A stretch of DNA of 4,859 nucleotides from a virus (Duplodnaviria; Heunggongvirae; Uroviricota; Caudoviricetes): the IMG/VR virus record IMGVR_UViG_2651869785_000017. One strand, given 5' to 3'. Position 1 is the stretch's first letter. Every line of letters starts with the position of its first letter. Both the position numbers and the translations under genes were made by a program. Shown in pieces: positions 1,837 through 4,707 of the stretch. The notes under the pieces were generated by a model, which ran no database searches, was not told the origin of the DNA, and saw only the letters and a list, made by a program, of their open reading frames with translations.

Positions 1837-1861
1837 AAAAAACCCGCTCAGTGGCGGGTTT
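1837..1861 (-). terminator. Terminator-like hairpin in the divergent intergenic region (stronger on the minus strand)
   Basis: Stem CCCGC (1843-1847) / GCGGG (1854-1858) with loop TCAGTG, flanked by A6 on the left and TTT on the right. The minus-strand transcript gets hairpin plus U6; the plus-strand transcript gets hairpin plus UUUAAGUUGUG. Confidence 0.45.
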
Positions 1862-1931
1862 AAGTTGTGTGGCGAAGTAACCACTCTTAACACAATACAA
1901 TACTTTTTGCGTACGCGTTAGTGTTTTGATA

Positions 1932-1966
1932 GAATTTTCAGCCACATAAAAATTCATTCTTATAAT
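1932..1966 (+). promoter_or_regulatory. Candidate promoter/operator region for the cassette
   Basis: Consensus TATAAT at 1961-1966, 12 bp upstream of the gene-1 ATG, but with no good -35 and no strong SD. A 7-bp inverted repeat GAATTTT (1932-1938) / AAAATTC (1949-1955) with a 10-bp spacer sits where a -35 would be, suggesting an operator or activator-dependent promoter. Confidence 0.25.
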
Positions 1967-1978
1967 TCGGGATATATA

Positions 1979-3154
1979 ATGGATATAACTTGTTTAGAAT
2001 GTGGCAATGTTCTTGACGACCCAACTGTAGCTTGCGATAAATGCGGTGCCACGCCTCATGTTGTAGTGCTGGGCAAACAATCGTACTTTCCTATTGGTGC
2101 TGTAACAGCAAATCTTGAAAAAAATGATTCAAGAGCATTTGATTATCGATTAGGTGAAGTTTGGGATCTAAAAAATGAAGTCACATCTGAATTCATAACC
2201 AGAATTGAGAAAAAATTTAGCCGAAAAAACAAATTTCATAACTTCCTAGACTCAGATCACAACCCTTCATCCATTCCTACGATCCTAAAAAAATACATTA
2301 ATAAAAATAATGAATTCATTGATTTATCTAGAGCTATAATAGAGAAGCTTAAACATAATGCTAATAACGAATCGAGAGTTGCCCAACTTCAGGGGGGGAG
2401 CGTTGTTTTCATCCACTATAAGTCTACCGAACCAGAGGATTTGGGGAAACTTCTAATCGTAATGGTTGATAAACAAAGCGCCTATGACTTTGATTCGGAT
2501 AAGTTGACCCCAACAAGATTAAATCCAATTAATACCGATGCCTTACGGCAGGCTGCGATGTTCGATTTAACTTTATTCGAAGCCAGTTATCCAGAAAACA
2601 AGGGTGACTCATATGTACATTTCTTGCAAGGTAAATCTAAAAGCGATTTTTTCAAAGACTCATTAGGTTGCCGACATGATTCGGACAATAAAAGAAGCAT
2701 TCAGCAATTATTCAGTGCTATAGATATTTTTGCTAGTAAAAACTCACTCGGTCGTGTACTGCGTGATACTATTGACAATGAAGTTAAATCCTTACTGGAA
2801 AAAAAATCAAAAGATAAACACGGAAATAAGTCCGTTAAGATAGAGGATATTTCAAAAATAATTGACTCATGCCTGACTGATTCACACAAATGTAAGGGAA
2901 CGTTTGTCGATTTTGTTAATCTTAATGGTTTCCAGATTGACCCTCAATTTGAACCAACTCCTAAAGCAGCTGAAAGCGCGCTTACAATTGAAGTGGCAGA
3001 TAACGACAATAATTTTAAGTTGAAAATAATGCGTGGAGCTATTGGAGACGAAAAGTCAAATAAGCCTGTAATTCTCACTGACAACAAATGCGAAATTGTG
3101 ATAAAATTGAGTCAGGCAAATTATGATGAACTCAAAAGATATAGAGACAGCTAA
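1979..3154 (+). CDS. Zn-ribbon + NdpA/YejK-like (NA37 family) nucleoid-associated-protein homolog, 391 aa; cassette gene 1
   Basis: Hand-verified translation. Residues 5-22 form a CxxC-x10-CxxC zinc ribbon (CLECGNVLDDPTVACDKC). Residues ~138-228 (GGSVVFIHYKS...LLIVMVDKQ...DLTLFEASYPENKGDSYVHFLQGKSKSDFFKDSLG) align by eye with the conserved core of E. coli YejK (GGFVLFCHY...[23 protein letters not shown]). Strongly AT-rich and K/N/I-rich, unlike the flanking DNA. Confidence 0.8.
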   Translation: MDITCLECGNVLDDPTVACDKCGATPHVVVLGKQSYFPIGAVTANLEKNDSRAFDYRLGEVWDLKNEVTSEFITRIEKKFSRKNKFHNFLDSDHNPSSIPTILKKYINKNNEFIDLSRAIIEKLKHNANNESRVAQLQGGSVVFIHYKSTEPEDLGKLLIVMVDKQSAYDFDSDKLTPTRLNPINTDALRQAAMFDLTLFEASYPENKGDSYVHFLQGKSKSDFFKDSLGCRHDSDNKRSIQQLFSAIDIFASKNSLGRVLRDTIDNEVKSLLEKKSKDKHGNKSVKIEDISKIIDSCLTDSHKCKGTFVDFVNLNGFQIDPQFEPTPKAAESALTIEVADNDNNFKLKIMRGAIGDEKSNKPVILTDNKCEIVIKLSQANYDELKRYRDS

Positions 3155-3156
3155 TA

Positions 3157-4371
3157 ATGACAATTGCTGATGACTTATCAAGATTAGCGCAGATTATTAA
3201 CGGAGCCTCAAGCAGAGTTGAGGGCTACTACACTGTCATAAGTCTTGAAGAAAGCATTGTTATTGTAAATAGTTCTGAAATAATTAGACTGTTACAATCT
3301 ATAGGTTATAAAAAGGCAACAACCTGCATCGAAAATAATGAAATTTGGCTAGATCGCCAAGCTTCATCTTGGGATGACGCTATAATTTATGAGAATGTTG
3401 AGTCTTTTTGGTCTAGAGTAAACACCCAAAACGCTCTTCCGAAAAATTATATCATCGGAACGCCGTTAATACTCCCTACTTCTAAGAATGAAAGCATCGA
3501 AAAAATCCATATTTTCTTTATGTGGAAAGATATCCTTTCATTAATTGCTGATCATCATAACAGTGACTGCTCTGTCTTATTTTTCACCAATGAAGACAAA
3601 AGTTATACAGTCGAACTCACGCATTTTTTACAATATAGCGAGATTAATCGCTTATCGAACTCGTCTCTTAAATATGAAATTATAAAGGAGCTTCTCGACA
3701 CAATAAAAATCAATGATTTACACAAAAGCGAGCGCAAGCTCGTTATACGCTCAGCCATAAACGAAGTATTTAAAGCAAATGGTACGTTCAATTTCTTTGA
3801 CTTGCTTAACTCTACTGAACTCGTCAGGAAAAAATATGATGAACTATATGAGATTTACACAAAGAGGTTTTCTGTAAATAAAATTCTTAACGAACTCGAT
3901 GAGAAAAATCTTGAGTTCACGAGTAAAATTAACGAATTCATATCATCTAATCAGACAAAAGCATTGACTATTCCCGGTGCATTAATAGCTGCTGGTGGCT
4001 TAGTGAAGGCTAATGAAACAACCGAAGCAATATTGATTATCGCAGGACTTTGGATGATAAAAAAAGTCAATTACATTTCTATTGAGATATTCAATGAAAC
4101 ATTCGACAACTTACGTTCTCGAGTGGAGTCCGCTTTCGATAAGTATTTAAAGTTTGAAGAAAATAAAGAAATCAAAGATAATGCAGATAGTATTAAGAGT
4201 AGCATTACAGGTTTGATTGATAAAGCTAAAAAAAGGATGAGAACTGTTAAATATCTCGCATCAGCCATGTTTTATGGAGGCCTTATTTACGTTGGATATA
4301 AACAGTTCCCAGTCTTTTTTGAAAAATCGGCAGTAAATCTATTTTATTTTTTATGCCATACTATAAGCTAA
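3157..4371 (+). CDS. Hypothetical membrane-anchored protein, 404 aa; cassette gene 2
   Basis: ATG lies 2 nt after the gene-1 stop (TAATAATG), so likely translationally coupled. A ~270-aa N-terminal soluble region has no recognisable catalytic motif (no Walker A, HExxH or obvious nuclease motif). Hydrophobic segments at approx. 3964-4020 (ALTIPGALIAAGGLV), 4030-4070 (AILIIAGLWMI) and 4255-4300 (YLASAMFYGGLIYVGY). Same AT-rich composition as gene 1. Confidence 0.75.
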   Translation: MTIADDLSRLAQIINGASSRVEGYYTVISLEESIVIVNSSEIIRLLQSIGYKKATTCIENNEIWLDRQASSWDDAIIYENVESFWSRVNTQNALPKNYIIGTPLILPTSKNESIEKIHIFFMWKDILSLIADHHNSDCSVLFFTNEDKSYTVELTHFLQYSEINRLSNSSLKYEIIKELLDTIKINDLHKSERKLVIRSAINEVFKANGTFNFFDLLNSTELVRKKYDELYEIYTKRFSVNKILNELDEKNLEFTSKINEFISSNQTKALTIPGALIAAGGLVKANETTEAILIIAGLWMIKKVNYISIEIFNETFDNLRSRVESAFDKYLKFEENKEIKDNADSIKSSITGLIDKAKKRMRTVKYLASAMFYGGLIYVGYKQFPVFFEKSAVNLFYFLCHTIS

Positions 4372-4707
4372 CATTGCTAAACAGCCGTCAACAAACCCCA
4401 TTGCAGTTTGCAGTTCCTTCCTAATTGTGCCATCAGAGCATTTTCTCTTCTTCGCAATAGTACGTAATGAGATACCGATAACAAAGTGGGCGATGATGAG
4501 CTCATATTCCTCTGGTTTATACCTTCTCAACCGAGCCACACAACTGTCTATCATGATGCCTTCGTCATCATCACACTGAATCCGTGACTTTTTGCCATGA
4601 GGTAAAAGTCCCTTGAAACCAGCCGCTATCGGCTGCCAGTCCACTCCGCTATTGTCTGAAGCAGCCCAAGCTCCCCAACGATCCATTACTTCATACATAT
4701 CACGCAT
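4351..4707 (-). CDS. Phage antitermination protein Q (Phage_antitermQ family, QuuD-like), 118 aa
   Basis: Translation MRDMYEVMDRWGAWAASDNSGVDWQPIAAGFKGLLPHGKKSRIQCDDDEG...CSDGTIRKEL matches my recollection of the DLP12 QuuD/Q-family pattern (MRD...ERWGAWAA...IAAGFKGL...SR.QC.DDD...CSDG). ATG at 4707 has a GGAG SD 7 nt upstream; the ORF track's extra 5 codons start at an in-frame TTG at 4722. Confidence 0.85.
   Translation of the reverse strand: MRDMYEVMDRWGAWAASDNSGVDWQPIAAGFKGLLPHGKKSRIQCDDDEGIMIDSCVARLRRYKPEEYELIIAHFVIGISLRTIAKKRKCSDGTIRKELQTAMGFVDGCLAMLAYSMA

Follow-up and report, generated by a model that had tools for sequence, protein, structure and literature searches.

The locus and its identity

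The window analysed here is a stretch of 4,859 nucleotides assigned to a virus of the class Caudoviricetes (IMG/VR record IMGVR_UViG_2651869785_000017). It carries two adjacent plus-strand genes, the first of which, the open reading frame (ORF) 1979..3154, is by sequence DS-1A, the leading member of the gene pair that makes up the anti-phage system DS-1. Its 391-residue product is 100% identical to the RefSeq protein WP_000355468.1 over its whole length and scores 451.4 bits against the NCBIfam equivalog NF053868 (‘DS1_1_antiphage, nucleoid-associated anti-phage protein’; cut-off, 330), the match running from model position 3 to 369 of 369 and covering residues 10-377 of the protein. The following ORF encodes DS-1B, which is 100% identical to WP_000150292.1 (404 amino acids) and reaches 375.2 bits against the equivalog NF053869 (‘DS1_2_antiphage’; cut-off, 315). 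The two genes meet at TAA-TA-ATG, a 2-nt gap, and form a unit of 2,393 bp. In newer RefSeq records of identical loci the pair is named ‘nucleoid-associated anti-phage protein’ and ‘anti-phage protein’.

The gene pair is already known: it has been validated experimentally, named and modelled in NCBIfam (DeWeirdt, Mahoney and Laub, Science 2026, PMC13092281). Table S6 of that work lists WP_000355468.1 and WP_000150292.1 under the working identifier D390, equated with DS-1 and marked as defensive and replicated, and Table S8 prints the DS-1A sequence (PMC13092281). The pair in the window shows no sequence difference from the published one. PADLOC v2 (2023) holds no model for either protein, as the system postdates it. 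A preliminary description of this locus, made from the letters of the sequence alone, implied that the architecture of DS-1A was new; with an equivalog model and a published phenotype, the family is in substance already characterised and that implication falls.

Anti-phage activity

Cloned with its native promoter on a low-copy plasmid in Escherichia coli MG1655, DS-1 protects against phages, a result that was replicated (PMC13092281). According to Table S7, the -log10 efficiency of plating (EOP) is 7.6 for Bas1 (no plaques counted), 2.7 for Bas26 (small plaques), 1.7 for both Bas3 and T3, 1.0 for T5 and 0.9 for T7; for SECphi27, only the plaques became smaller, the EOP being undiminished (PMC13092281). 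The sensitive phages fall into T1-like (Bas1, Bas3), T5-like (T5, Bas26) and T7-like (T3, T7) groups (PMC13092281). Among the D390 entries of Table S7 there is no row for T4, RB69 or lambda (PMC13092281). The same work counts ‘a YejK nucleoid-associated domain’ among the domains newly tied to defence (PMC13092281).

The NA37 fold of DS-1A

The Pfam model NA37 (PF04245, IPR007358) matches residues 64-376 of DS-1A with 84.5 bits (cut-off, 24.6; E = 1.2e-23) and is matched by all 34 aligned homologues. A sequence search of solved structures with DS-1A returned only E. coli YejK (PDB 9be2, E = 1.2e-9), with which phmmer aligns the motifs GGxVxFxHY, DLT, YxxFLxG and DFFxDxLG, and comparison of the family profile with YejK by hhalign gave a probability of 98% (E = 1.4e-13). 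The AlphaFold2 (AF2) model, built from the 34-sequence alignment, has a mean predicted local distance difference test score (pLDDT) of 85.7 and a predicted template-modelling score (pTM) of 0.77. The two-domain YejK fold is present in this predicted structure, for which Foldseek found a single significant match in the PDB, again YejK 9be2 (E = 2.5e-14 over 363 columns at 19% identity). The relationship is that of paralogues. Orthology with YejK was ruled out, as DS-1A reaches only 81.4 bits against the equivalog NF001557, for which the cut-off is 341. YejK is moreover encoded in the core genome beside a divergent neighbour, whereas DS-1A is a prophage gene with a partner.

The similarity to NA37, including the listed motifs, had been noticed in the preliminary description and is borne out by both sequence and fold. 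The same description placed about 135 residues ahead of the NA37 core, and here it has to be corrected. The published HHpred analysis assigns NA37 to residues 42-382 (PMC13092281), a PHROG family model covers residues 36-390, the first long strand of the AF2 model spans residues 34-48, and Met1 of MG1655 YejK, when added to the family alignment, falls at residue ~27-36. Because these four agree on a start near residue 34, the extension of DS-1A over YejK is ~33 amino acids and consists essentially of the ribbon motif treated below; the rest of the difference in length (DS-1A is 56 amino acids longer) is made up of small insertions.

The two proteins also differ in several pore residues. Mutagenesis has shown that DNA binding by YejK needs R173, R176 and K177, as well as R276, R280 and K284 (Schumacher et al., 2024, PMC11229321). 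R176 aligns with K219 of DS-1A, a position held by Lys or Arg in 32 of the 34 homologues. K177 aligns with a Ser that is invariant in the DS-1A family, and R173 lies in a three-residue insert without counterpart. R276, R280 and K284 align with Pro, Glu and Thr, in a C-terminal domain where the alignment, at 20% identity, is unreliable.

The partner DS-1B

In every one of the 21 loci that offer enough DNA, the gene immediately downstream of the DS-1A homologue encodes a homologue of DS-1B, with or without the ribbon. DS-1B is predicted to consist of a soluble N-terminal part and a helical, hydrophobic C-terminal part. The N-terminal part has a net charge of -9 here (-1 to -14 across 31 homologues), and the block most conserved in the family, residues 226-284, lies at its end. 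In the C-terminal part, the AF2 model contains long helices at residues 271-284, 288-331, 337-383 and 385-403, and Kyte-Doolittle hydropathy peaks at 1.56 in the 19-residue window that starts at residue 291. In the paper describing DS-1, transmembrane (TM) and coiled-coil (CC) labels are defined in the legend of Fig. 3C for the systems shown there (PMC13092281).

A proposed damage-sensing model

A framework for these two proteins is offered by PANGU, a class of systems composed of a YejK-like protein (PagA) and an effector (PagB), in which the YejK-like protein senses phage-induced chromosome damage (April 2026 preprint, bioRxiv 10.64898/2026.04.06.716658). In type I systems, degradation of the chromosome by T4 frees Pag1A from the nucleoid, and the freed protein activates a toxSAS enzyme by binding its DNA-mimicking domain (bioRxiv 10.64898/2026.04.06.716658). 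In type II systems, the effector Pag2B is a membrane protein: its N-terminal domain is acidic and mimics DNA, and its TM region is C-terminal. The tested E. coli type II system, PANGU-Ecu, requires both genes; its cultures arrest without collapsing, in keeping with abortive infection; Pag2A fused to GFP departs from the nucleoid upon T4 infection; and Pag2A binds the N-terminal domain of Pag2B with a dissociation constant (KD) of 19 nM (bioRxiv 10.64898/2026.04.06.716658).

DS-1 resembles type II PANGU in that both are two-gene anti-phage operons with a YejK-like gene just upstream of a partner that is acidic at its N-terminus and membrane-associated, or so predicted, at its C-terminus. The acidic soluble part and the hydrophobic C-terminal helices of DS-1B, taken as a putative DNA mimic and a predicted membrane region, would match the description of Pag2B. 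Type II systems are defined by a YejK-like protein of at least 300 amino acids and by operon gaps below 40 bp; DS-1A has 391 and the gap is 2 nt. By analogy, DS-1A would retain the clamp fold of YejK and rest on chromosomal DNA in uninfected cells. Degradation or remodelling of the nucleoid by an infecting phage would release it, and the released protein would bind the acidic N-terminal domain of DS-1B in the membrane. DS-1B would then compromise the membrane, so that the infected cell no longer supports phage growth, as in abortive infection. The zinc ribbon would be an optional addition to the sensor, outside the conserved core. We give this model, together with the identification of the locus as DS-1, a probability of about 0.6.

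Several observations weigh against the model. For DS-1 itself, the published work gives the phenotype and the YejK domain call, its Fig. 5 dealing with other systems (PMC13092281). The basic pore residues used by YejK for DNA binding are only partly kept in DS-1A, so that DNA binding by DS-1A has to be regarded as putative. Just one segment of DS-1B exceeds the classical hydropathy threshold, and a fold search with DS-1B returned generic helical bundles only. The likeness of DS-1 to the tested type II system is one of described layout. The phage ranges differ as well: the tested type II system protects against T4, for which DS-1 has no row in Table S7. Finally, type II PANGU is reported to be distributed over multiple phyla, whereas the DS-1B family is small and, but for Vogesella and a contig that is probably mis-binned, gammaproteobacterial.

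In the alternative that fares best, phage DNA is captured directly. A membrane-bound DS-1B and a DNA clamp formed by DS-1A, loading on the free ends of incoming linear, unmodified phage DNA, would block its replication or expression and protect the cell without killing it; the ribbon would aid recognition of DNA ends or tether DS-1A to DS-1B. The genomes of T1-like, T5-like and T7-like phages are linear and unmodified, and T4 DNA is modified. Such a mechanism would suit the set of sensitive phages and the missing rows for T4 and lambda among the D390 entries of Table S7, as well as the drop of 7.6 logs for Bas1, with no plaques counted. It would also suit the structure of YejK, whose ring-shaped clamp encloses a pore of 30 Å and for which a loading step has been proposed. 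However, abortive infection is how the related PANGU systems work, and their sensor initially sits on the nucleoid. Kiwa, the known system that pairs a membrane protein (KwaA) with a DNA-binding protein (KwaB), is like DS-1 by analogy only: gene order and folds are unrelated, and no fold similarity to KwaB was found, the DS-1A model matching no PDB chain but YejK. Direct capture is accordingly judged unlikely, with the damage-sensing model preferred.

The N-terminal ribbon

Four of the eight Cys residues of DS-1A, at positions 5, 8, 19 and 22, form two CxxC knuckles in the arrangement CxxC-x10-CxxC, as the preliminary description had correctly read. Such a motif within the first 45 residues is expected by chance with a frequency of 2.5e-5 (200,000 shuffles of DS-1A). 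Profile matches are weak: Zn_Ribbon_1 of Pfam scores 13.4 bits on DS-1A, below its gathering score of 25, in a class of zinc-ribbon models so short that the cut-off is seldom reached. Across the family, Zn_Ribbon_1, Zn_ribbon_3 and DZR recur in 7-10 of the 34 members, none at gathering level (best E = 6.7e-4); the ATP-cone domain PF03477, with matches in seven of the 34 and a best E of 1.3e-3, is likewise far from significant. HHpred relates the N-terminus to NinF/Zn_Beta_Ribbon with a probability of 86 (PMC13092281). AF2 places short strands at this segment with a pLDDT of only 55-68. It is the motif, together with its conservation, that carries the assignment as a putative zinc ribbon.

The full set of four Cys occurs in 16 of the 34 aligned homologues. 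An N-terminal Cys4 motif, in the form CxxC...CxxC or CxxC...CxC, is present in 14 of 37 full-length DS-1A-subfamily representatives; the other 23 have an acidic, Cys-free tail in its place and keep the DS-1B partner. On a rough neighbour-joining tree, the proteins with a ribbon form three clades that alternate with ribbon-less members, and more distant NA37 proteins begin directly at the first strand. Judged from these alignments, the ribbon is real and under selection where present, yet accessory to DS-1A, since only 14 of the 37 representatives have it, and the conserved unit is the NA37 protein with its partner. Since about two thirds of the family do without it, the ribbon cannot form the core of the mechanism, and the preliminary description gave it too much weight.

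That emphasis amounts to a reading in which the ribbon is the trigger, binding a phage protein or nucleic acid directly, and the NA37 domain is a mere scaffold. The improbability of the motif by chance and the strict retention of its four Cys wherever it occurs, across proteins only 35-56% identical, would fit such a role. The 23 representatives that lack the motif and still have the partner speak against it, as do the patchy distribution on the tree and the low model confidence at the segment; the PHROG model omits the motif altogether, and the NCBIfam model takes in only its second half. We regard a ribbon trigger as quite improbable. Equally doubtful is a narrower proposal, that the ribbon is a lineage-specific input module altering the response of the sensor, for example to a phage protein or to the free ends of phage DNA that is linear and unmodified. 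If true, it would account for DS-1 acting on T1-, T5- and T7-like phages but not on T4, unlike the published type II PANGU. The ribbon of DS-1A has no counterpart in the discussion of PANGU, as the word ‘zinc’ never occurs in the text of the preprint (bioRxiv 10.64898/2026.04.06.716658).

Prophage setting and distribution

The window comes from a lambdoid prophage in which head and terminase genes are followed by lysis genes, three tRNA genes, a gene for an AraC-like regulator, a 65-codon winged-helix gene, the oppositely oriented DS-1 pair, the antiterminator gene Q, and then DUF968, KilA-N and RusA genes (Table 1). DS-1 is thus cargo in antisense orientation, with the gene of the Q antiterminator on one side and the lysis genes on the other. 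Context comparison delimits the cassette-linked DNA to ~1838 to 4392, and GC content is 0.35 over 1838-4392 against 0.47 on both flanks; the preliminary view of a horizontally acquired, AT-rich gene agrees with this.

Table 1. Features of the window, with positions counted from its first nucleotide
Feature	Position	Strand	Basis or remark
Three tRNA genes: Arg (tct), Arg (tcg), CAT-anticodon	389-638	-	CAT one: Met in ARAGORN, Ile in RefSeq
AraC-family regulator, 237 aa	667-1380	-	YdeO/GadX-like, 108 bits vs NCBIfam cut-off 348; phrog_1450
Winged-helix-like protein, 65 aa	1515-1712	-	phrog_331; weak TrmB/MarR-type matches; between AraC-like gene and cassette
Cassette upstream DNA, presumed native promoter region of DS-1	1838..1978	.	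Identity with strain A39 prophage from ~1838 into the gene
Hairpin AAAACCCGC-tcagt-GGCGGGTTT, left end of cassette-linked DNA	1838-1862	both	Reads as a terminator both ways
Promoter-like site TTGATA-16-AAAAAT	1926-1953	+	Promoter scan, 9/12 matches
DS-1A ORF	1979..3154	+	ATG start, 391 aa, YejK/NA37-family ‘nucleoid-associated anti-phage protein’
Cys4 zinc-ribbon-like motif, DS-1A residues 3-26	1985..2056	+	Cys codons at 1991, 2000, 2033, 2042
NA37/YejK two-domain fold, DS-1A residues ~34-382	2078..3124	+	Profiles and AF2
DS-1B, presumed membrane effector, obligate partner	3157..4371	+	404 aa; starts 2 nt after DS-1A stop
DS-1B N-terminal soluble part, residues 1-266	3157..3954	+	Alpha/beta domain and helices (AF2), net charge -9
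DS-1B C-terminal helical part, predicted membrane region	3955..4368	+	Hydrophobic segments ~268-283, 289-303, 364-385
DS-1B / Q antiterminator convergence (overlap of 21 nt) and variable 3' end of Q	4351-4392	+/-	Context comparison

The prophage of strain A39 helps to define the left side of the cassette, which lies there directly between Q and a lambda-type holin gene. The winged-helix gene is not part of DS-1, because it is missing from this context. The promoter scan as a whole did not exceed chance (14 sites against 11.4 expected), so that assignment of the DS-1 promoter is tentative. The right end falls within the last ~13 codons of Q. As homology to a related prophage resumes only at ~4392 (compared with a stretch of E. 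coli strain 8178, L025 3900-4090), these codons belong to the variable cargo segment. In strain 8178, a different antisense two-gene cassette occupies the interval between Q and the holin gene (L025 2472-3960), and it matches the PADLOC candidates PDC-M53A (E = 1.1e-30) and PDC-M53B (E = 1.7e-54). The presence of this second candidate defence cassette suggests that the slot between Q and the lysis genes is a hotspot for defence cargo in this prophage family. As for the other neighbours, the tRNA genes resemble the ileZ-argN-argO cluster found downstream of Q in Stx-type lambdoid prophages, and the AraC-family gene may link the prophage to acid-resistance regulation of the host.

In E. coli, the cassette was found in 106 of 5,426 complete genomes, at least 99.8% identical in all and always abutting a Q gene; this near-identity points to recent spread. 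One of the 107 E. coli records with the cassette is a plasmid. When one genome from each of 185,579 species was scanned, 22 loci emerged, nearly all in Gammaproteobacteria, the others being in the betaproteobacterium Vogesella and on one contig of a metagenome-assembled genome labelled ‘Lactobacillales’. The latter contig (JAATEZ010000277.1, 2.6 kb) holds the gene pair at 48% identity; it is probably gammaproteobacterial and mis-binned, and not a genuine case of the pair in another phylum. Genes for integrases, a VapE-like primase, UmuC or Rhs proteins lie beside distant loci. When 1.84 billion representatives were searched exhaustively with a profile, 619 NA37-type matches resulted, only 54 of them at E <= 1e-30, and a search with the DS-1B alignment profile recovered nothing beyond the family already known. 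Neither the DS-1 cassette nor a DS-1B homologue was found in deposited phage genomes, at the level of DNA or of protein; only ~20%-identical NA37 genes turned up, from Pseudomonas phages. These genes of the temperate phages F116, H66 and PseuP_222/224 are borne on mobile elements like DS-1A, but have no DS-1B homologue beside them. NdpA2 of PAPI-1, also an NA37-family protein encoded on a mobile element, is described as a regulator of transfer, not as a defence gene (PMC8565334).

Such paralogues on mobile elements and in temperate phages raise the weakest of the alternatives, that DS-1A is a housekeeping nucleoid protein of the prophage. It would silence or organise the DNA of the prophage or govern its induction, much as NdpA2, which regulates transfer of an integrative element (PMC8565334), does on the PAPI-1 island, and protection would be a by-product of plasmid-borne expression. 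The adjoining late-gene regulator Q would fit this reading, but it is very improbable, given that protection was replicated with a low-copy plasmid and the native promoter in MG1655, where the prophage is absent, that silencing leaves a strictly conserved membrane partner unexplained, that another candidate defence cassette fills the same prophage slot, and that distant homologues lie in unrelated islands rather than lambdoid late regions.

Significance

The suggestion in the preliminary description that a nucleoid-binding fold had been repurposed as a sensor agrees with published work, both the validation of DS-1 as a defence system and the YejK-like damage sensors of PANGU. A true defence gene was thus picked out from raw sequence alone, though the discovery had already been made. 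Its interest now is narrower: DS-1 offers, in compact form and under native expression in E. coli, a YejK-type putative sensor with a predicted membrane partner, and the combination of a constant partner with an intermittent ribbon makes the family a clean natural experiment on the contribution of the ribbon.

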